Below the pieces are notes generated by a model. The model was not told where the DNA came from, did not search any database, and saw only the letters and a list, made by a program, of their open reading frames with translations. Source: Elusimicrobia bacterium RIFOXYD2_FULL_34_15 (GTDB taxonomy: Bacteria > Elusimicrobiota > UBA8919). From it: a DNA stretch of 64,000 bases. This document shows positions 53,781 to 62,940 of the stretch, in pieces (position 1 is the first letter of the stretch; the number at the start of each line of letters is the position of its first letter). The DNA lies in the NCBI GenBank assembly GCA_001800605.1, contig MGVS01000070.1, positions 2,910 to 66,909 of the forward strand, read 5' to 3'. A program made the position numbers and the translations under genes.

Positions 53781-54521
53781 TTACTTAGCGAGGTCAAGTC
53801 CTTGCTGACGGATTATTTCATAAAAAATTATTGATGCTGACATCCCGGCATTTAAGGATGATATTCTTGGGGTAATAGGTATTTTAACTAAAAAATCACA
53901 TTTTTCTTTAGTAAGTCTTTTTAAACCTGAACCTTCATTTCCAATCACAACTGCTATTTTCCCTTTTATTTCTTTTCCAGAAATATTTTCACCGGACATA
54001 TCAGCGCCATAGGTCCAAAATCCGTTCTTTTTTAACGTTTCAATAGCGTAGACGATGTTTGCTACACGTACAATTGGAATATGTTCTATTGCACCTGCCG
54101 ATGCTTTTGATGTGCCTGTTGAAATTCCTGCTGAAGATCTTTGCAGTACAATAATAGCATCTATACCGAAACATACAGCAGAACGGATAATTGTTCCTAG
54201 ATTTTGCGGATCTTCAATCTCATCTAAAATACATACTTTTGCATTTTCCTTTTCATTGACAAGATGCAACAACTGTTCAAAAGGCAAATATTCTTTGGGA
54301 GATACAAATGCAACCGTACCCTGGTTATTTGGAGAATAAGCGGTTAATTTATGTGAATCTACAAATTGAACCGGTACATTTCTCTTTCTTGCAAGAGCTA
54401 TTATTTTATCGACAATTTCGCCTTCGTAATGTTTGGAAACAAATAATTTTTTAAATTTTCTTCTGCCTGCGCTTAATGCTTCAAAAATAGGATGACGGCC
54501 GTAAATAATTTCAGTATTCAT
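53781..54521 (-). CDS. rlmB: 23S rRNA (guanosine-2'-O-)-methyltransferase, SpoU/TrmH family (RlmB-like)
   Basis: SpoU_sub_bind N-domain plus SPOUT motifs LDEIEDPQNLGTIIRSA and VIGNEGSGL. Confidence 0.8.
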   Translation of the reverse strand: MNTEIIYGRHPIFEALSAGRRKFKKLFVSKHYEGEIVDKIIALARKRNVPVQFVDSHKLTAYSPNNQGTVAFVSPKEYLPFEQLLHLVNEKENAKVCILDEIEDPQNLGTIIRSAVCFGIDAIIVLQRSSAGISTGTSKASAGAIEHIPIVRVANIVYAIETLKKNGFWTYGADMSGENISGKEIKGKIAVVIGNEGSGLKRLTKEKCDFLVKIPITPRISSLNAGMSASIIFYEIIRQQGLDLAK

Positions 54522-55915
54522 AGTTTAATTATCCTTGTCCCAGATTTTGTATCTTCGACTTCAAAACCCAATTCTTTCATTTTCTGCCTTATTTCATCTG
54601 AAAGTTTCCAGTTTTTATTTTTTCTTGCTTGCTCTCTTTCTTCAGATAATTTTAAAATATTTTCAGGTATTTTTAATTCTTGTTCAAATGATAAACCAAG
54701 AATATCGCAAAGTTTCAATAGCTTGTTACGGTATAATACTATCCAGTCTTTTGCACCTTTTTTATTTTCTAAAAAGTCATTATAAAAGCCATTTAACATA
54801 TTTACAATTCCGTGAATCATAGCTAGTGATTCAGCGGTATTAAAATCGTCATCCATTGAATTTTCAAAATTTTGAATATAGTTTTTAATAGTGGTATCAT
54901 TTATATGATCAGCAGTGCCGTCAGGTAAAATATTTTTTGTTTTTTCCAAAATATTCAATATTCCAAAATATGTATTTTTAGATTGTTGGAGTTTTTCTTG
55001 CGTAAAATCGAGCGGTTGCCGGTAATGCTGAGACAAAAGCATATATCTTACGACCATCGGTTCGTATTTTTCAAAAATCTCCCTTAATGTAAAAAAATTC
55101 CCGAGTGATTTTGACATTTTTTCTTTATTAATTGTGACAAACCCGTTATGTATCCAATATTTAACAAATTGTTTTCCAAGAGCTGCTTCTGACTGTGCAA
55201 TTTCATTTTCATGATGCGGAAAAATAAGATCCTGTCCTCCGCCGTGAATGTCAAATGTATTTAAACCAAATTCTTTTAATGACATTGCGGAACATTCAAT
55301 ATGCCATCCTGGACGTCCCTTCCCCCATGGACTATCCCATGAAGGTTCACCGTCTTTAGCTTTTTTCCAAAGAGCAAAATCTAACGGGTCTTTTTTTTTC
55401 TCACCTGGTAAGACTCTTGCGCCGACTTTTAAATCTTCAATATTTCTTTTTGAAAGCTTACCATAATCTTTAAATTTTCTAACTTGAAAATATACATCAC
55501 CGTCTACAACATATCCATAACCATTGTCAATAATTTTTTTAATAAATTCTATTATCTCAGGAATTTTTTGTGTAACTCTTGGATAAGAATCAGCATCCAC
55601 AATATTAAGCTTTCTCATTTGTACAAAATAATCATCGATATATTTCTGAGCAAGCTCTGAACTCTGAATTTGCATCTCGTTACTTCTGTTTATAATTTTA
55701 TCATCTATATCAGTAAAATTCTGTACATATTTTACAGTATAACCTTTATATTTTAGATAACGGCGGATAATATCAAAAACAACGTAGCATCTTGCATGCC
55801 CGAGATGTACTTCGTCATAGGGTGTTATACCGCAGACATACATATTGACGTTATTATCAGACAATGGTTTGAATTCTTCTTTTTTACCGGAAAGAGTATT
55901 ATGAATTGTTAGCAT
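54518..55915 (-). CDS. cysS: Cysteine--tRNA ligase
   Basis: HLGHARCY (HIGH), KMSKSLGN, and Zn-binding C/H residues. Confidence 0.95.
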   Translation of the reverse strand: MLTIHNTLSGKKEEFKPLSDNNVNMYVCGITPYDEVHLGHARCYVVFDIIRRYLKYKGYTVKYVQNFTDIDDKIINRSNEMQIQSSELAQKYIDDYFVQMRKLNIVDADSYPRVTQKIPEIIEFIKKIIDNGYGYVVDGDVYFQVRKFKDYGKLSKRNIEDLKVGARVLPGEKKKDPLDFALWKKAKDGEPSWDSPWGKGRPGWHIECSAMSLKEFGLNTFDIHGGGQDLIFPHHENEIAQSEAALGKQFVKYWIHNGFVTINKEKMSKSLGNFFTLREIFEKYEPMVVRYMLLSQHYRQPLDFTQEKLQQSKNTYFGILNILEKTKNILPDGTADHINDTTIKNYIQNFENSMDDDFNTAESLAMIHGIVNMLNGFYNDFLENKKGAKDWIVLYRNKLLKLCDILGLSFEQELKIPENILKLSEEREQARKNKNWKLSDEIRQKMKELGFEVEDTKSGTRIIKL

Positions 55916-55918
55916 GAA

Positions 55919-56203
55919 TTAATTGTTTTCTTCGGCTGATTCATTAACTGAAGAATTTTTAAACCTGTTCAATTCGGATTTGAGTTTTATATATTGTACT
56001 GTAAGAACAAATAACATTGATATTAAAATTATAATTACTGTTATCAGCCAGAAGTTTTGATTTATTCTGCCCAACGCAAAACCGAAAACCCCCGCGAAAG
56101 TAGTTGTTAACCACTTGGGTGAATTATCCCACAAATTTTTTCCGTGTGTGTTCATGAACACTTTACCTTTGTTTAAAGTAGCTTCTAATCTTTCCTTATC
56201 CAT
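55919..56203 (-). CDS. Small 2-TM membrane protein, paralog A of the WD(N/S)SPKW(L/F) family. Start set at the ATG giving MDKERLEATL.
   Basis: ...GKNLWDNSPKWLTTTFAGVFGFALGRINQNFWLITVIIILISMLFVL. The ORF-track extension to 56230 runs into the ispF-tail repeat. Confidence 0.45.
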   Translation of the reverse strand: MDKERLEATLNKGKVFMNTHGKNLWDNSPKWLTTTFAGVFGFALGRINQNFWLITVIIILISMLFVLTVQYIKLKSELNRFKNSSVNESAEENN

Positions 56204-56204
56204 T

Positions 56205-56306
56205 TTTAATAATACATACAGCGCAGGCACAGATTGCTTTGCCTTTACCGATGCCCCCCACCCGTTCTCTTGTTGTTGCCTTGATGCTTATATTTTTTGT
56301 TTTTAA
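56205..56306. repeat. Partial duplicate of the ispF 3' end, copy 1, about 100 nt. It reads in frame as IKATTRERVGGIGKGKAICACAVCIIKNG*.
   Basis: ttaataatacatacagcgcaggcacagattgctttgcctttaccgatgccccccacccgttctcttgttgttgccttgatgcttatattttttgtttttaaagcc, compared with the native ispF tail at 59150-59255. Confidence 0.8.
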
Positions 56307-56328
56307 AGCCAATATTTAATATATTTAA

Positions 56329-57474
56329 TTATTCTAAATAATTTTCTTGAAATTCATCAAAACCATCAATTTTTGTAAAATCAATATTAAAATTATTTTT
56401 ATCTATTTTTGTTATTCTAACACTATCAATTCCTATTATTTTTAACTTTTCATATGTTAGTAGTTCGTCTTCTTTTAATTTTAGAACTTTTCTTAAAAGC
56501 CAATCTGAAAGAGCATTATTCGGATTTGTCATCAATGCTTTTGAATTTTCCTGACAAACTTTTGCATTTAATATTTCACCAGTAGGAATATGTAAATTAA
56601 ACGATTTATCCCTTGGTGGCAAAAAATTAGGAAAGTTTTTGTGAATTTGGATTGGAATGGGAATATATACTTCTCCCGAGTCTCTTTTTCTACCACCGGC
56701 ATTCCACTGATTTAAACCGCTTTTTTCTGCAACTACTTTGTTATTTTTTTTACTTTCTCTTAATGAATATAAAGGTAAAATTATATAATCTTCTCCTGGA
56801 ACTTCTGAGGTAGGTTGTTTTATATCAATTTTTCTAAACAAAGTTAAAATTAACTCATAAGGATCTTCTAAAATCTGTATTGGTAGGTCAATTGAGTTAG
56901 TAGGAATTTCAAATTTTTTAAATAGAGTACTTTTTGAAAAATTAAAAGAATATTCATTTTTTATATCATTAAACTGAATACCTGCTATTGAAGATTTTAT
57001 ATTTCTTATTTTATTTTCATCAATTAATTCATAATCAGTTTCAAATATTTTTAGTATTTTTTTTCCACGAGCAATACAATGATAAATGGAATTTTCAACA
57101 CCATATGTTCTTATAGCAAATTTAATTCTTTCGTTTCTTAAATTAGATAAACGCAGTACTAATTTTGTATTGTCTAAATTTCTTAATTCTTTACTAAAAG
57201 CATTGAATTCGGCAATCTTTTCAATCGCATATTTTCCTTTCACGGTAAAAGTTTTTAATCCGATGCCGATATTATCTTTTTTGGCATCAAATGCTAAATC
57301 ATCTCTTGACAGGTTATCAGCATTGAAAGATTTACAAAAGATATTCTCTGCTACTCTATAATATAGATAAGGAACTTCATTGTCACTAAACAATTTTGAT
57401 AAAGAACAAATTGCTTTTAAATAGTTAAAATAAAGTTTTTTAGAATTATCTGGTTGTGATGAAATGAATATCAC
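56329..57474 (-). CDS. Putative type II restriction endonuclease (family not recognised). A possible PD-(D/E)xK core lies in the N-terminal region.
   Basis: 381-aa ORF overlapping the 3' end of the adjacent MTase gene by 29 nt, a typical R-M arrangement. N-terminal D...FDAKK. No similarity to housekeeping families. Confidence 0.45.
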   Translation of the reverse strand: MIFISSQPDNSKKLYFNYLKAICSLSKLFSDNEVPYLYYRVAENIFCKSFNADNLSRDDLAFDAKKDNIGIGLKTFTVKGKYAIEKIAEFNAFSKELRNLDNTKLVLRLSNLRNERIKFAIRTYGVENSIYHCIARGKKILKIFETDYELIDENKIRNIKSSIAGIQFNDIKNEYSFNFSKSTLFKKFEIPTNSIDLPIQILEDPYELILTLFRKIDIKQPTSEVPGEDYIILPLYSLRESKKNNKVVAEKSGLNQWNAGGRKRDSGEVYIPIPIQIHKNFPNFLPPRDKSFNLHIPTGEILNAKVCQENSKALMTNPNNALSDWLLRKVLKLKEDELLTYEKLKIIGIDSVRITKIDKNNFNIDFTKIDGFDEFQENYLE

Positions 57475-58402
57475 TTTGATAAGTCTCCTTTAGTGGTAAT
57501 TGATTTTCAATTGTTTTTTTCGAATTTAATATTCTTTCTTCTGCCAAATTACAAAATTTTTCATTTATTTCAAAACCAATATAATTTCTATTTGATACTA
57601 TACTTGCTATGGCAGTTGTACCACTTCCCATAAAAGGGTCTAAAACTATATCGTTTTCTTTAGAAGTTGTTAAAACCAAAGGTTTTATTAGTGACTCAGG
57701 ATAAGATGCTTGATGTTCTCCAAAAGGTTCTATTCCGCATCTTATTATATCTCTGTGATAATTAAGCTGTTTTGCCATATTTAAGTCAAAATAATATTTT
57801 CGTGATTTTACAAAATGAAAAATATGTTCATAAACAGGATATCTTCTATCAGGTGAATAAGAGGGAACAGGATTAGGCTTTTCCCAAATTATTTTATTGC
57901 GTAAAATCCAACCTTGTTCTTGCATTCCCATTGCAACTCTTTCAGGTAACATTAAAAGTTGTTTATATTGTAAATATTTTCCATTGGGCTTTGCAATTTT
58001 ATGTTCTTTATAATGTTTATCTGTTTTTCTTGCATATTTTCCTTTATTTCGCACAAATCCTTTTGTACCAAAATATACATCTCCAATATTTAAATAAAAA
58101 GACCCTTCTTTATTTAAAACTCTTTTTAATTCATTACTATATTTTAATAAATTTGTGACATATTCTAATGGATGCTCTTCTCTTCCAAGAGTTTCATTCC
58201 CGTAGATCCTGCATCCAAAATATGGTGGACTTGTAATAATTAAATTAACAAAATTATCTGGCAATTCTTTTATTAATTTTAAAGAGTCTCCACAGATGAT
58301 TTTATTAACAAAATCAATCCCATTTTTATTGAGATTCTTTGTATCATAAATAACAATATTATTTTTAAATAATAATTTTTTTCTTTTTTTCTTTTTATAC
58401 AT
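57446..58402 (-). CDS. DNA methyltransferase, beta-class amino-MTase (N4-cytosine or N6-adenine)
   Basis: Motif IV SPPY precedes motif I DPFMGSGTT. ParB-less type II solitary-size enzyme, 318 aa. Confidence 0.85.
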   Translation of the reverse strand: MYKKKKRKKLLFKNNIVIYDTKNLNKNGIDFVNKIICGDSLKLIKELPDNFVNLIITSPPYFGCRIYGNETLGREEHPLEYVTNLLKYSNELKRVLNKEGSFYLNIGDVYFGTKGFVRNKGKYARKTDKHYKEHKIAKPNGKYLQYKQLLMLPERVAMGMQEQGWILRNKIIWEKPNPVPSYSPDRRYPVYEHIFHFVKSRKYYFDLNMAKQLNYHRDIIRCGIEPFGEHQASYPESLIKPLVLTTSKENDIVLDPFMGSGTTAIASIVSNRNYIGFEINEKFCNLAEERILNSKKTIENQLPLKETYQSDIHFITTR

Positions 58403-58404
58403 TT

Positions 58405-58605
58405 TTAAAAATCTAACTCTTTTTTATAACTTATATTTAAAACTAAAACAATAGACAATACTATGATAAGAACTAAAAAAATTATGCTTATCCAAAATGG
58501 TGGACCTGCTTGAATTTTGGATAATATAGCTGTAAAAATTATAGCAACAATGGTAATAAACCATTTAGGTATTTTATACAAGATATTCTTTGCCAAGTTA
58601 CTCAT
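58405..58605 (-). CDS. Small 2-TM membrane protein, paralog B of the SPKW family
   Basis: MSNLAKNILYKIPKWFITIVAIIFTAILSKIQAGPPFWISIIFLVLIIVL. The ORF-track N-terminal extension (KAKQSVPALYVLL) is the ispF-tail repeat read in another frame. Confidence 0.4.
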   Translation of the reverse strand: MSNLAKNILYKIPKWFITIVAIIFTAILSKIQAGPPFWISIIFLVLIIVLSIVLVLNISYKKELDF

Positions 58606-58607
58606 AA

Positions 58608-58672
58608 TTGTTATTAATAATACATACAGCGCAGGCACAGATTGCTTTGCCTTTACCGATGCCCCCACCCGT
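58608..58672. repeat. Partial duplicate of the ispF 3' end, copy 2, about 65 nt. 58 nt are identical to copy 1 apart from a single-C indel.
   Basis: taataatacatacagcgcaggcacagattgctttgcctttaccgatgcccccacccgttt. Confidence 0.8.
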
Positions 58673-58676
58673 TTTT

Positions 58677-59141
58677 CTAAAACTTTAGTTCTTTTTTGAC
58701 AAATTCCAGAGCTTCTTTAAGATCAAATTTTTTACAATCTTCATTCATCAGTTCTCTAATACTGTTTCCGACATCGCAGGAAAAATGCGCTCCGAATCCA
58801 TAAGTTTGAGGAAAATATTTCATTTGTCTAGGTTCTCTACAACAAGTACAATATGGTCTATTATCGATTGTTTTTTTATTATAATTTATCAACCATTTTA
58901 CGCCAAATCTTGAAATAAATTCTTTTTTATCTTTTCTTTGAGTTATTTGTATATACTTCTTAGTTTTGAAATATAAAACAATGAATACAAATAAAGCAAA
59001 AACTAAAATTATAATAGCTATAATCGGCCAGAATAACTGACCTTTTTTAATTTTTAAGATAGTGGTTGTTAAAATTGCTGTAAAAAGTACAAGCAACCAT
59101 TTTGGGGAAGAATCCCATATATTTTTAGCCCACTTAATCAT
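58677..59141 (-). CDS. Small 2-TM membrane protein, paralog C of the SPKW family, with a C-terminal Cys-rich (Zn-ribbon-like) domain
   Basis: MIKWAKNIWDSSPKWLLVLFTAIL..KKGQLFWPIIAIIILVFALF. C-terminal CTCCREPRQ...HFSCD. Its ATG overlaps the ispF stop (ATGATTAA). Confidence 0.45.
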   Translation of the reverse strand: MIKWAKNIWDSSPKWLLVLFTAILTTTILKIKKGQLFWPIIAIIILVFALFVFIVLYFKTKKYIQITQRKDKKEFISRFGVKWLINYNKKTIDNRPYCTCCREPRQMKYFPQTYGFGAHFSCDVGNSIRELMNEDCKKFDLKEALEFVKKELKF

Positions 59142-59646
59142 ATTTTCCGTTTTTTATTATACATACAGCATAGGCGCAGATTGCTTTACCTTTGCCGATG
59201 TTTCCAACTCCTTCGTTTGTTGTTGCTTTGATGCTTATATTCTTTGTTTTTAAAATCTTTGAAATTTTACTTTTCATATTTTCTATATATGAAGAAATTT
59301 TTGGCTGTTCTGCAATAACCATAGAATCTATATTTTCAATTTTGTATCCTAATTTTTTAATTAAATTATGTGTTTTTTCCAGCAAAATTAAACTTGAAAT
59401 ATTTTTAAACTTTTTATCAGAATTTGGAAAATGAATGCCTATATCACCTAGCCCTGCCGCACCAAGAAGTGAATCACAAATTGCATGAAGCAGGACATCA
59501 CCGTCAGAATGAGCAAGCATCCCTTTTTTAAATTTTATTTTTACTCCACCTAAATAAAGAGGCTTACCTTTTACTAATCTATGAATATCATAACCAAAAC
59601 CAATACGGATAGTGGTGTTCTGATGTTCTATAGTTCTACTGTTCAT
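59134..59646 (-). CDS. ispF: 2-C-methyl-D-erythritol 2,4-cyclodiphosphate synthase
   Basis: IGFGYDIHRL, HSDGDVLLHAICDSLLGAAGLGDIGIHFP, and C-terminal KATTNEGVGNIGKGKAICAYAVCII, which corresponds to the canonical IspF C-terminus. Confidence 0.9.
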   Translation of the reverse strand: MNSRTIEHQNTTIRIGFGYDIHRLVKGKPLYLGGVKIKFKKGMLAHSDGDVLLHAICDSLLGAAGLGDIGIHFPNSDKKFKNISSLILLEKTHNLIKKLGYKIENIDSMVIAEQPKISSYIENMKSKISKILKTKNISIKATTNEGVGNIGKGKAICAYAVCIIKNGKYD

Positions 59647-60287
59647 AAGTTTTTGATATCGTCTTTGGTTGTTATTTTTATGTTTTTATATTCGCCCAAA
59701 ACAATTCTTACTTTCCTACCTAATTTTTCTACCAATGCCGAGTCGTCTGTTGAAAAATAGTTATTTTTAAATGCTTTTTTATAAGCCTGCATAATTATCG
59801 AATATTTAAATGTTTGCGGTGTTTGAGCTAGAAATATATTTCTACGTTCAGGTGTTGAGATAATATATTCATTTTTTACAATTTTAACAGTATCTTTTAC
59901 CGGTACGGCAACAATGGCTGCTCCACATTTTTTAGCAGCCGAAATACTCTCAGAAATAATTTCTTTAGATATAAAAGGTCTTACACCGTCATGTATTATT
60001 ACAATATCAGTATTTAACGGAAGTGCGGAAAGCCCGTTAAAAACTGAATGCTGTCTTGTTTTTCCACCTGATACGATTTTAACATTTTCAGGAAATTTCA
60101 AGTTTTTAATTATATTTTTGATATTATCTTTTGGTAAAACAATAACTATATTTTTTAGCTGATTAATGCCTAGAAATTTAGAAAGCGTTATTTCAAATAT
60201 CCGTCTATGGCCTATATATTCAAATTGTTTTTTTGAACCAAATCTCTTACCTGAACCGGCAGCAACAATTATTGCGGAAATATTCAT
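59643..60287 (-). CDS. ispD: 2-C-methyl-D-erythritol 4-phosphate cytidylyltransferase
   Basis: AIIVAAGSGKRFG nucleotide-binding motif. Confidence 0.9.
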   Translation of the reverse strand: MNISAIIVAAGSGKRFGSKKQFEYIGHRRIFEITLSKFLGINQLKNIVIVLPKDNIKNIIKNLKFPENVKIVSGGKTRQHSVFNGLSALPLNTDIVIIHDGVRPFISKEIISESISAAKKCGAAIVAVPVKDTVKIVKNEYIISTPERRNIFLAQTPQTFKYSIIMQAYKKAFKNNYFSTDDSALVEKLGRKVRIVLGEYKNIKITTKDDIKNL

Positions 60288-60317
60288 TGTTTTTTAAGAG
60301 TCAATTTAAAATTTAAA

Positions 60318-60364
60318 ATTTCCACCACTGATACTTCGGTGGATCCGCCTACGACTTAGTGGCG
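60318..60364. repeat. GC-rich hairpin pair (CCACCACTGATACTTCGGTGG, CCGCCTACGACTTAGTGGCGG) downstream of ispD
   Basis: Family shared with 37803-37878, 48686-48718 and 21066-21092. Confidence 0.65.
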
Positions 60365-60450
60365 GAAAAAATTAAGATTTTATATCTCAATTTTTAATCC
60401 AGTAACTAACTCGGGACAAGTTTTTGCATTTTTAATTTTTTTTAACTCTC

Positions 60451-61443
60451 TTAGCTTTCTTCAGTTTCTTTTGTTACATTAGCAAATACCATTCTACCGG
60501 TTGATGTTTGCAGAATATTTGAGACAACAATATTAACCTTTTTACCTATATGACTGCGTCCGTTTTCAACAACTATCATTGTACCATCGTCAAGATATGC
60601 TACTGCCTGACTTTTTTCTTTTCCCTCTTTCATAAGATAAATACTTAATATCTCTCCGGGTAATAGTGCAGGTTTTATTACACCTGCAAGTTCGTTAACA
60701 TTAAGTACTGCGACACCGTGTACCGATGCTACTTTGTTAAGGTTGAAATCCGTTGTTATAATTTTTGCTTTTAAATCCTCTGCGAGTTTCAATATTTTTG
60801 CATCAGTTTGTTTTATTTCAGAATAATCTTTTTCAAAAAATTTTACCGGTACTATAGAGTTTTGTCTTATTTTGTTTAACAAATCCAGTCCTCTTCTTCC
60901 GCGCTGACGCTTGATAGAATCTGCAGAATCAGCTAAAATTTGTAATTCCGCAACGATAAATTCAGGAATAACGATAATTCCTGATATAAAATTTGTTTCA
61001 ATAATATCTATTATTCTCCCGTCGATTATTGCTGAAGTATCAAGTATTTTCAGGTCGCCTTGTCTTTTTTGGGATGTTAAATGGATATCTTTATCAAGTA
61101 AAGATAGTTCTTCCTTTTTTCTAACTGCGATTATAAGTCCCAAATATGCTAAAACCATTTTAATTAAAATTGAATATGTCTTCATAAACCTGTCTAATTT
61201 TGGTTCTTCCATTAAATATACAGAATAATCCATAAGTTTTGCGGCAATTAACCCGAGAATTGCGCCAAGACATCCAGCTATTATTGAATCTAGCGGAATC
61301 ATTTCTATAACTATTTCAATTAATATTACTAATAAAGCAACACCGACACCTATTAAAATTCCTTTAGCATCTTTTGAAATTTGAAACCAGCCAATTACCG
61401 GGCCGGCAATTATAATTATTGATCTAATAATCCAGATAAACAC
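60451..61443 (-). CDS. PIN/TRAM domain protein (YacL-like) with N-terminal TM helices
   Basis: PIN core ILDTSAIIDGRI, followed by a TRAM-like C-domain. Confidence 0.7.
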   Translation of the reverse strand: MFIWIIRSIIIIAGPVIGWFQISKDAKGILIGVGVALLVILIEIVIEMIPLDSIIAGCLGAILGLIAAKLMDYSVYLMEEPKLDRFMKTYSILIKMVLAYLGLIIAVRKKEELSLLDKDIHLTSQKRQGDLKILDTSAIIDGRIIDIIETNFISGIIVIPEFIVAELQILADSADSIKRQRGRRGLDLLNKIRQNSIVPVKFFEKDYSEIKQTDAKILKLAEDLKAKIITTDFNLNKVASVHGVAVLNVNELAGVIKPALLPGEILSIYLMKEGKEKSQAVAYLDDGTMIVVENGRSHIGKKVNIVVSNILQTSTGRMVFANVTKETEES

Positions 61444-61572
61444 GACTCCTCCTTAACAGCAATTAAAAATTTGAAATTAAAAATGTAAAATTGATGTGAA
61501 AATATTTTTAAATTCGATTTTATTAATAAATACCTCAATTTTTAATTTTGCATTTTGCATTTTAAATTGTTT

Positions 61573-62940
61573 CTATACTTTTATGGCGTTTATTGCTTCA
61601 AATACTGTTTCAACCGGCACGATTTTTATCTTTAATTTTTCGTCAATTCCTTTTACATTGTGTTTTGGAATTAAACATTTTTCAAAACCAAGTTTTTCTA
61701 GTTCAGTTAACCTTTGAGAGATATGCGTAACTGCTCTAATTTCGCCTGTTAAACCAACTTCACCTATAATGCCAAAATTAGCGGGTATTACAAAATTCAT
61801 AGTAGCAGAAGCAATAGAACATGCAACTGCTAAATCACAAGACGGTTCTTTTGTCTTAATCCCGCCGACTATATTTACAAAAATATCCTGATTTGAAAGT
61901 CTAAGCCCGAGCCGTTTCTCCAATACAGCAATTATAATAGATGCCCTATTGTATTCAAAACCGGAGAATTGCCTTCTTGGAACAGGTATTGGGGTCGAGG
62001 CAACCAAAGCCTGAACTTCCAGTAAAATCGGTCGATTCCCTTCTATAATGCATGTAATGACACTACCGGAAACATTTTTAGGTTTCTCACCTATAAAAAT
62101 TTCAGAAGGATTTTTAACCTCTTTTAAGCCGGTTTCCTGCATTTCAAAAATTCCGACTTCATTAGTTGCGCCGAACCTGTTTTTAAAACATCTTAAAATA
62201 CGGTAAGAATGATGTTGTTCTGCACTAAAATAAAGAACTGTATCTACAATATGCTCTAAAAGCCGTGGTCCCGCAAGAGTGCCTTCTTTTGTTACGTGTC
62301 CGCATATAAATGTTGAAACCGGCAAAGATTTACTAATTGATAAAAGTTCTGCGGTAGTTTCTCTAACCTGCGAAACACTTCCGGGAGCAGATGCTATATC
62401 GTCCCTGTACATAGTTTGTATTGAATCAATAAAGAGAAATTTTGGTTTAATTTCGTTAACTTTTGAAATTATTTCAGAAAGCAATGTCTCAGAAGCAAGA
62501 AAGAGATTACCTTTATCTATTTTTAACCTTTGAGCGCGCATTTTAAGCTGTTCTAAAGATTCTTCACCGGATACATATAAACAAGTATATTGCTTTGAAA
62601 GATTTCCTGCTATCTGTAACAGTAAAGTTGATTTACCTATGCCGGGTTCGCCGCCGATTAAAATTAATTGGCCGTCAACTATTCCGCCGCTTAACAGATT
62701 ATCAAACTCATTAATCAATGTTTTATATCTGTTTTTTGTTGTCTGGATCTCGGAGATTTCATCTATTTTCTTGGCCGGTGAAGAAAAATTTGTTATATTT
62801 GTTCTGGTTTTTGATTCGGCAAATTTCCGTTCTTCGATAAATGAGTTCCACTTATCACAGTCGGGACATTTACCCAGCCATTTTGTTGATTCATAACCGC
62901 ATTCCTGACAAATAAATATAGTTTTATCTGCTGTTTTCAT
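61573..62940 (-). CDS. radA: DNA repair protein RadA/Sms
   Basis: Zn-finger CxxC..CxxC, Walker A GEPGIGKST, KNRFG motif, Lon-like C-domain. Confidence 0.95.
   Translation of the reverse strand: MKTADKTIFICQECGYESTKWLGKCPDCDKWNSFIEERKFAESKTRTNITNFSSPAKKIDEISEIQTTKNRYKTLINEFDNLLSGGIVDGQLILIGGEPGIGKSTLLLQIAGNLSKQYTCLYVSGEESLEQLKMRAQRLKIDKGNLFLASETLLSEIISKVNEIKPKFLFIDSIQTMYRDDIASAPGSVSQVRETTAELLSISKSLPVSTFICGHVTKEGTLAGPRLLEHIVDTVLYFSAEQHHSYRILRCFKNRFGATNEVGIFEMQETGLKEVKNPSEIFIGEKPKNVSGSVITCIIEGNRPILLEVQALVASTPIPVPRRQFSGFEYNRASIIIAVLEKRLGLRLSNQDIFVNIVGGIKTKEPSCDLAVACSIASATMNFVIPANFGIIGEVGLTGEIRAVTHISQRLTELEKLGFEKCLIPKHNVKGIDEKLKIKIVPVETVFEAINAIKV

Follow-up and report, generated by a model that had tools for sequence, protein, structure and literature searches.

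The closest described systems to the locus studied here are the insertions of restriction-modification (R-M) genes with long target duplication (Nobusato et al. 2000; Furuta, Abe & Kobayashi 2010), the prophage-encoded protein Rip1, and two groups of small proteins with two transmembrane (TM) helices, the SLATT effectors (PF18186 and relatives; NF033631-4) and the class II holins with other small phage proteins. An R-M insertion of the first kind is recognised by R and M lying inside, an insert of less than 20 kb, a repeat longer than 30 bp and the lack of mobility genes (PMC2853133). Rip1 (ring interacting pore 1; PDB 9oox; homologs HK446 gp37 and Pseudomonas Casadabanvirus orf25) is sensor and pore in one protein, in which the N-terminus forms an amphipathic helix and the C-terminal half binds the target (PMC13434031). 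In the window, the whole 64-kb stretch of DNA that was analysed, three small membrane protein genes (P154, P67 and P94) are found with an R-M pair between ispF and cysS. We favour, at a probability of roughly 0.55, an account in which the P genes are genuine paralogs of the slot next to ispF, multiplied by recombination and serving a constitutive membrane role, while the R-M system is a visitor.

P154, the long paralog (58677..59141, minus strand as are all features given below), is an ORF of 154 aa, and P94 (55919..56203) is a short paralog of 94 aa. P67 (58405..58605), a short paralog consisting of the 2-TM hairpin only, has 66 aa from its start at ATGAGTAAC; the lengths of 154 and 94 aa given in the original prediction were thus correct, while that of 67 aa was not. 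An alternative ORF call of 87 aa extends P67 into a remnant of ispF. Common to all three are the motif K-N-x-W-D-x-S-P-K-W and a loop with F-W. As had been predicted, the motif reads WDSSPKWL in P154, IPKWF in P67 and WDNSPKWL in P94, the inter-TM loops read GQLFW, GPPFW and NQNFW, respectively, and the P154 tail carries CxCC...C...C. Pairwise BLASTP with composition adjustment gave E values of 5e-14, 2e-8 and 6e-9 for the three pairs, and an HMM of the 2-TM core scored all three at 94-110 bits, the next ORF in the window reaching 9 bits. By these comparisons the similarity of the three ORFs is well above chance expectation, and the single architecture claimed for them is borne out. The paralogs are only 33-41% identical among themselves.

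In an alignment of seven family members P-K-W, the I of the loop, the F in FW and a single L were invariant, and that of the C-terminal domain gave the invariant pattern F..G..W..P.C.CC...C. P94 is the most conserved member; its N-terminal extension of 16 aa (MDKERLEATLNKGKVF) is conserved, and its end lies 3 nt from the cysS start. AF2 models divided P154 into an N-terminal amphipathic helix with WDSSPKW, two TM helices, a beta-rich Cys4 domain and a C-terminal helix; the full-length model had a pLDDT of 68, and the Foldseek search made with it was meaningless. The P proteins are likely to have an N-in/C-in topology, in which the cytoplasmic interface would be occupied by the Trp-rich amphipathic helix, which holds the WDxSPKW motif, and, in the long form, a Cys4 zinc-ribbon-like domain would be tethered to the inner membrane face.

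Among 1.84 billion representatives the family comprised five clusters at E<1e-10. It was found in four Elusimicrobia lineages, to which the lineage comparison extends (the window genome, a UBA9627-like genome, GCA_043802785 and a JGI contig), in the slot right after ispF. Scans of Pfam, NCBIfam, PADLOC and PHROG with six members and four distant relatives gave no match above threshold, PDB sequence searches with both alignments returned no relative, and collections of phages, viral contigs and plasmids contained none either. Pattern scans of genomes, metagenomes and viral sequences yielded no members beyond the already known sister species. The original prediction of an unnamed family was to fall if homology to a known family such as YqaE/Pmp3 emerged, or if the motif was not conserved in homologs; since the family proved to be unnamed, Pfam Pmp3 not being among the matches even at E <= 1, and the homologs keep P-K-W and F, neither ground for refutation arose. 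The P family is a very small, unannotated group of two-helix inner-membrane hairpins confined to one Elusimicrobia clade, a lineage-restricted orphan.

The home of the family clearly is the slot immediately 3' of ispF, inside the conserved cluster radA-yacL-ispD-ispF-...-cysS-rlmB. In the window the stop codon of ispF (59134..59646), which codes for the MEcPP synthase of the YgbB family (PF02542, E 4e-63), and the P154 start codon overlap (ATGATTAA); a P start overlaps the ispF stop in two lineages. This overlap had not been recorded in the original prediction. The downstream boundary of the variable gap is cysS (54518..55915; an ORF matched by Pfam families). The interval from ispD to cysS contains ispD, ispF, the three P genes, M, R and cysS only, and no terminator-like sites were found on its minus strand; the promoter and terminator scan was otherwise uninformative. 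The P proteins may be constitutive small membrane proteins made together with IspDF and CysS, which we regard as the weakest step of the favoured account.

Comparison with the sister species gave a dN/dS of 0.16 at a dS of 1.03 for P154/P169 and of 0.058 at 1.26 for P94/P97, while the neighbouring housekeeping genes gave dN/dS of 0.04-0.20 and dS of 0.9-1.4. P154 was 69% identical to its ortholog P0002, and P94 was 87% identical to its ortholog P0004 across the BLASTP-aligned 89% of the query (86% across 88 aligned residues). On these figures the three P ORFs are to be taken as genuine genes under purifying selection and not as chance ORFs, the selection test being that of P154 and P94. At depth the family evolves faster than its neighbours (P154 and P153 are 45% identical, the IspF proteins 73%), IspF identity among the four lineages being only 71-84%.

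In the R-M pair, M comes first (57446..58402; an N4/N6 DNA methyltransferase bearing the motif SPPY, PF01555, E 1e-45) and is followed by R (56329..57474; a restriction endonuclease whose C-terminal DNA-binding domain is B3-like and of the NgoFVII type, PF20731, E 4e-12). A homology block at 56326-58406, whose boundaries are exactly those of M and R, defines a mobile cassette of 2.08 kb. The block is 89.9% identical at the nucleotide level to that of sister species L001, while the flanks are 78-81% identical; dS against the sister species is 0.42 for M and 0.43 for R, compared with 0.9-1.4 in the flanks. The boundaries are sharp, homology in five cassettes beginning about 5 nt ahead of the M start. 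A methylase N-terminus MYKKKKRKK is common to the cassettes, with 33-56% identity over the first 25 residues and 29-38% over the remainder; a conserved recombination module at the methylase 5' ends was considered and set aside, as the evidence for it was weak.

The cassettes of the four lineages differ and occupy different positions of the gap. Lineage L014 carries M, a PvuII-like R and a further M, in L015 an M is inserted after codon 12 of cysS, and haplotype L007 of the sister species retains P169 and P97 without any R-M genes. The P repertoire after ispF also differs between the two closest lineages, with a long form in L014 and a short one in L015. The ispF-cysS gap is demonstrably a defence hot spot, and the R-M pair emerges from the alignments as a separate, horizontally exchanged 2.08-kb cassette that landed at differing points of it, while the P genes are passed down vertically with ispF and cysS. 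Since the cassette position varies by lineage and the cassette is absent from L007, the adjacency of P and R-M genes would reflect a shared hot spot and be a by-product of recombination there. The term cassette-like island used in the original prediction thus suits the R-M pair and not the P genes. Its proposal of abortive-infection, exclusion or holin-like effectors, drawn from that adjacency, is not supported by the neighbourhood comparison, in which P is constant with ispF while R-M is variable and may be missing. Nothing shows cooperation of the P genes with the restriction system; the P genes are the residents here, and an R-M neighbour argues only weakly that a small membrane protein serves in defence.

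Analysis of the gap further revealed that the last ~112 nt of ispF (59143-59254) are the source type of two downstream repeats. The first, rep2 (58614..58673), is a 60-nt remnant of the ispF 3' end that begins 6 nt past the P154 stop and ends 8 nt ahead of the P67 start. The second, rep3 (56196..56307), is likewise a relic of an ispF 3' end, 112 nt long, and matches the ispF end at 83% identity (repeat family D1); translated in the ispF frame it still gives KNISIKATTRERVGGIGKGKAICACAVCIIKNG followed by a stop, and the P94 start codon falls within it. Rep2 and rep3 share an exact match of 50 nt, where none is expected by chance, and the match extends to 60 and 61 nt, the sole difference being one G in a G-run. 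Rep2 and the rep3 core (56206-56266), spaced at 2408 nt, are the left and right direct repeats that bracket the P67-M-R segment. The repeats had no Rfam match and folded no better than shuffled sequences (z +0.66 to -1.49), so that a structured RNA or riboswitch was rejected. The remnants ahead of P67 and P94, too, were absent from the original prediction.

Since a remnant precedes each extra copy, P67 and P94, the unit duplicated or imported is, as read from the repeats, the ispF 3' end together with a P gene. In the sister species one ispF remnant lies between P169 and P97; it belongs to a different species and is only 64% identical. It is the positional counterpart of rep3 upstream of the P94 ortholog, more decayed and 52% identical to the species' own ispF. 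A search for a strain of the window species with an empty site was negative. The segment order P154-core-P67-M-R-long remnant-core-P94 is not fully accounted for by a single simple target duplication, and the repeat core is perfectly identical whereas P67 and P94 are deeply diverged; two or more events, or gene conversion, have to be invoked.

The R-M cassette probably arrived in this genome together with P67, which at 0.239 has the lowest GC of the locus (M 0.265, R 0.256; P94 0.319, cysS 0.313). The history of P67 is where the favoured account meets its strongest alternative, that only P154 and P94 are functional and that P67 is a decaying passenger relic, a truncated long-form gene brought in with the R-M segment. 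We consider this possible, on the less probable side. Besides its GC, the lack of an ortholog in any other genome searched speaks for a relic, as does the motif, which reads ILYKIPKW with the otherwise near-invariant W-D gone; moreover, P67 is most similar to the L014 long form (44% in the core), yet the C-terminal domain is missing from it. On the contrary, the ORF is intact, with none of the six family-invariant residues lost and the two hydrophobic helices still present, and P67 abuts M with a gap of 2 nt, such that it would be co-transcribed with M.

It is rather unlikely that the P proteins act on the membrane by themselves, in defence or exclusion, from within a chromosomal defence hot spot, with the long form as a membrane-anchored, Rip1-like single-protein sensor whose zinc-ribbon binds a phage protein and triggers a pore, and the short forms as hairpin-only partners or modulators. 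The R-M hot spot at the locus in four lineages would fit such a role, and fast divergence, a variable repertoire and divergent paralogs, which are also typical of conflict genes, count against the favoured account, as do the defence hot spot itself and the fold match described below. One distant relative of the C-terminal domain adjoins a CHAT-STAND NTPase gene, while another lies among housekeeping genes (dnaJ/rsmE); the contexts of these relatives are inconsistent and their contigs mostly too short. Against a defence role stand the host-like dS of the P genes, their dN/dS of 0.06-0.16, the translational coupling to ispF, the absence of PADLOC matches and SLATT matches at noise level.

The best fold match of the long-form C-terminal domain was the anti-phage pore protein Rip1. 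Like P154, Rip1 is a small protein whose membrane-active N-terminal helix has many small residues and whose C-terminal domain is beta-rich and zinc-ribbon-like, with four Cys; in the hhalign alignment CTCC coincided with the first CxxC knuckle of Rip1 and the fourth Cys with the second. However, this alignment against 11 Rip1 members was not significant (P 0.05-0.08, probability about 1%), nor was sequence and profile similarity generally; Foldseek gave no match, and small folds of the zinc-ribbon kind are widespread. Rip1 differs further in its coiled-coil linker without a constitutive TM hairpin and in its ligands (CxxC...CxxC, compared with CxCC...C in P154), and the short P paralogs lack the C-terminal domain altogether. 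Rip1 homologs lie in prophages, whereas the P family, devoid of phage, viral-contig or plasmid relatives, lies in a housekeeping cluster. It is doubtful, more so than a defence role in general, that the long P proteins are chromosomal, constitutively membrane-anchored Rip1 analogues whose Cys4 ribbon senses a phage assembly protein and opens a lethal pore, with the short forms as hairpin-only partners and the gap as a defence slot refreshed at the ispF repeats; the family would be worth more only if this lead were confirmed.

Least probable is an integron- or Xer-like attachment site in the 60-nt ispF 3' core, at which a recombinase encoded elsewhere would integrate and excise P or P plus R-M units: three tandem copies of the ispF end each ahead of a small unit, the exactly identical rep2/rep3 core with identity stopping abruptly on both sides and the sharp-edged cassettes would suit it, but the ispD-cysS interval contains no recombinase gene, no tRNA gene occurs in the window, neither a significant secondary structure nor a dyad was seen in the core, the sister remnant has diverged as a neutral relic would, and the cassettes of the sister species, L014 and L015 lie within the ispF end, behind P153 and within the 5' end of cysS, with no core at their flanks.

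The SLATT effectors resemble the P proteins in their two-TM hairpin and similar length, and sub-threshold SLATT matches recurred in the same register in five P members. The SLATT hairpin is, however, followed by a helical extension which the P proteins lack; the best match (E 0.018, 14.9 bits) remained below the cut-off of 55, with Pfam E values of 0.14-0.53, and no SMODS, SLOG or RT-type partner was found fused or in the operon, the neighbours in all lineages being ispF, cysS, M and R. Reversed sequences matched equally strongly (SLATT_5 at E 0.095, a holin PHROG at E 0.005), and the SLATT and phrog_29792 matches were therefore dropped. The P proteins resemble class II holins, and further small 2-TM proteins of phages, in their size (66-94 aa), two TM helices, short turn and charged C-terminus. 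The true sequences gave no holin match above noise in Pfam or PHROGs, no endolysin, spanin or prophage context was found near the P genes, and the P genes, unlike holins, are vertically inherited in a housekeeping cluster. Toxic abortive-infection or holin effectors are not likely.

The locus also resembles the R-M insertions with long target duplication. As in those, a type II M and R pair without a mobility gene lies between high-identity repeats of more than 30 bp, the 2408-nt insert containing only P67, M and R and no transposase, integrase or prophage gene. Also as in those, the GC of the insert is below that of the surroundings, and related genomes carry different R-M systems, one substituting for the other, at this locus. 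The repeat may have a single-copy counterpart at the same place in a relative, the 64% identical remnant of the sister species being a candidate. On the contrary, the repeat of this locus is a gene 3'-end relic that was duplicated before insertion, the insert brings along one more paralog of the small gene beside it, more than one event is needed for the segment order, and the same cassette was inserted without duplication in the sister species. The locus thus presents a clean small-scale case in which a recombination hot spot beside an essential gene gives rise to paralog arrays, each insertion leaving a gene 3'-end relic and an additional copy of the adjoining small gene, while sharp-edged R-M cassettes are swapped in and out between species.

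The genes from ispD to cysS all lie on the - strand of the window and are tightly packed, and a terminator scan found no terminator-like site on that strand from ispD through cysS. In transcription order they are ispD (59643-60287), ispF (59134-59646), P154 (58677-59141), whose start is overlapped by the ispF stop, the ispF 3' remnant rep2 (58614-58673), 6 nt from P154, P67 (66 aa; 58405-58605), the DNA methyltransferase gene M (PF01555; 57446-58402), which P67 precedes by 2 nt, the restriction endonuclease gene R (PF20731; 56329-57474), a second ispF remnant, rep3 (56196-56307), inside which P94 (55919-56203) starts, and, 3 nt after P94, cysS (54518-55915); rlmB is downstream of cysS. P154 is 100% identical to hypothetical protein A2539_04135 of the groundwater MAG 'Elusimicrobia bacterium RIFOXYD2_FULL_34_15'. 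The gene order at 53781-62940 is radA, PIN/TRAM (YacL-like), ispD, ispF, the gap, cysS and rlmB, with flbD-motA-motB coming after this cluster. This order mirrors the radA-yacL-ispD-ispF-...-cysS-...-rlmB arrangement of Bacillus subtilis; the gap carrying the P genes and the R-M pair therefore breaks up a gene cluster that is conserved and very old.

The three small ORFs, their shared motifs and the Cys-rich tail were all present as first described. Pairwise BLASTP among P154, P67 and P94 gave E values of 5e-14, 2e-8 and 6e-9, and a profile of the 2-TM core scored the three ORFs at 94-110 bits and the next-best ORF of the window at 9 bits. Hydropathy analysis showed a moderately hydrophobic helix 1 and a strongly hydrophobic helix 2, and the AF2 model of P154 contained an amphipathic helix (2-11), helices 14-29 and 37-70, a region rich in beta structure and a last helix at the C-terminus. 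Two of the P genes have orthologs in a sister species (UBA9627-like; GCA_003452965 and several metagenome contigs), with dN/dS of 0.16 (dS 1.03) for P154 and its ortholog P169 and of 0.058 (dS 1.26) for P94 and its ortholog P97; the values for ispD, ispF, cysS, rlmB and motA were 0.04-0.20 (dS 0.89-1.37). These comparisons indicate that the P genes are real genes. The P94 start codon (56201-56203) lies inside the ispF remnant, where AAT GGA stands in place of the AAC GGA at the true end of ispF, a change that creates the ATG. Conservation of the extension MDKERLEATL(N/D)KGK identifies the start that yields 94 aa as the true one for P94; since its ATG arose within the remnant, the protein gained a conserved stretch of 16 aa at its N-terminus from relic and spacer.

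Word-based searches of 5.8 billion proteins matched only the proteins themselves and the sister species, and 1.84 billion representatives, searched exhaustively with a profile, yielded five clusters at E<1e-10, two of them new, the long form P0006 (153 aa) and the short form P0007 (71 aa). A third, P0008 (143 aa), is identical to P169 over residues 1-49 and otherwise resembles the N-terminus of a cation/proton antiporter; it is most likely an assembly chimera of P169. The C-terminal Cys domain alone is common to four more distant proteins. No further members turned up in GTDB genomes, JGI metagenomes or IMG/VR, and no phage or plasmid match was found. The view that the family had no name was borne out, as no Pfam, NCBIfam, PADLOC or PHROG model reached threshold and no sequence relative was found in the PDB. 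The P family is thus real, unnamed and very narrowly distributed.

Comparison of the ispF-cysS gap in four lineages, whose IspF proteins share 71-84% identity, showed that a P gene directly follows ispF in each of them and that the remainder of the gap varies. The common haplotype of the sister species reads ispF-M-R-P169-remnant-P97-cysS, and a second haplotype (contig L007) reads ispF-P169-remnant-P97-cysS, without R-M. The order in GCA_043802785 (L014) is ispF-P153 (ATGA overlap)-M-small PvuII-like R-M-..., and in a JGI contig (L015) ispF and P71 are followed by the first 12 cysS codons, joined in frame to the start of a methylase. The original prediction had pointed to effectors of the kind common beside R-M systems; this was not supported, the P family being an ispF-adjacent resident and no accessory of the R-M system.

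Behind ispF-P153, L014 (6468-9090) carries two R-M-like cassettes in tandem: a methylase gene comes first, followed by an ORF of 159 aa that matches PvuII endonuclease below threshold (E 1.4e-3), another methylase gene and an ORF cut by the contig end. In L015 (2100-2214) the methylase (MYKKKKVKK...) starts in frame right behind cysS codon 12; this looks like insertion of an R-M cassette into cysS at its 5' end, and the contig ends ahead of the other junction. The spacer 5' of P169 (L007 2918-3022; sister-species contig L001 7867-7985) is about 105-120 nt long, GC-richer and carries inverted repeats within it; in this one species, the haplotypes with and without R-M have entirely different versions of it, and some parts look like each other's reverse complement. 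A terminator hairpin is one possible reading of this spacer, a small element that inverts or moves another.

Sequence comparison indicates that mobility at this locus lies with the R-M pair. A 2082-bp block with 89.9% identity is common to the window (56326-58406) and the sister species (L001 5786-7866), bordered 4 nt 5' of the M start and 3 nt 3' of the R stop; the flanking genes share 78-81% identity, and the dS of M and R (0.42-0.43) is less than half that of neighbouring genes (~1). These sharp borders, the identity above that of the flanks and the low dS point to recent horizontal exchange of a bare M+R cassette, without a mobility gene. Within the locus, GC is lowest in M, R and P67. All five cassette methylase genes compared (window 58388-58406; L001 5780-5800; L014 6460-6480 and 7860-7880; L015 2120-2140) begin with the invariant AAAAATGTATAAAA (MYK..KRK). 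Their similarity starts about 5 nt ahead of the ATG, the flanks further upstream are unrelated, and the methylases share only ~30-37% identity overall; the common start may reflect a regulatory or junction sequence that the cassettes share, or just a conserved Lys-rich N-terminus.

Recurrent SLATT matches and a PHROG match of the P proteins were no stronger than those from reversed sequences, and both were rejected. Alignment of the long-form C-terminal domain revealed four invariant Cys (CxCC...C) and invariant F, G, W and P. Its profile-profile comparison with an alignment of 11 members, taken from phage genomes, of the anti-phage pore protein Rip1 (ring interacting pore 1) matched the Cys knuckles in order, though it was not significant; a Rip1-like function of the long form is therefore a lead rather than a finding. 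The Rip1 structure 9oox_L corresponds to HK446 gp37 (L023 7912-8406), adjoining the N antiterminator gene; the homolog hkaP of HK620 (L029 148-642) is annotated 'putative superinfection exclusion protein', and those of Pseudomonas Casadabanvirus are encoded on the opposite strand, flanked by the gene for a DNA-binding protein and that for the large terminase. Among distant relatives of the P154 C-terminal domain, P0011 (L019 3-2039) is the divergent neighbour of a gene for a CHAT protease-STAND NTPase, a typical conflict-system protein, and P0010 (L034) adjoins dnaJ and rsmE.

The locus is most informative in its trail of ispF-end relics, which records the assembly of the paralogs and the R-M cassette in a hot spot. 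A repeat search identified a family of three copies, the true ispF end, rep2 and rep3, without Rfam match and folding no better than shuffles. A run of 50 nt is identical in rep2 and rep3 (0 expected by chance); it extends to 60 versus 61 nt with a single G difference and ends abruptly at both edges. The true ispF end has several mismatches to this core. Rep3 is still readable in the ispF frame and is 77% identical to the window ispF, and the sister-species remnant 5' of P97, at the same position, has decayed to 52% identity with its own ispF. So the 'ispF end + P' duplication is old and predates the species split; the remnant of the window lineage was probably refreshed or re-created later, in an event linked to the arrival of P67-M-R. 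If rep2 and rep3 recombined, P67-M-R would be lost and the locus would return to precisely the L007 gene order. The configuration in the window agrees with published operational criteria (PMC2853133) for an R-M insertion with long target duplication; its segment order needs more than one event.
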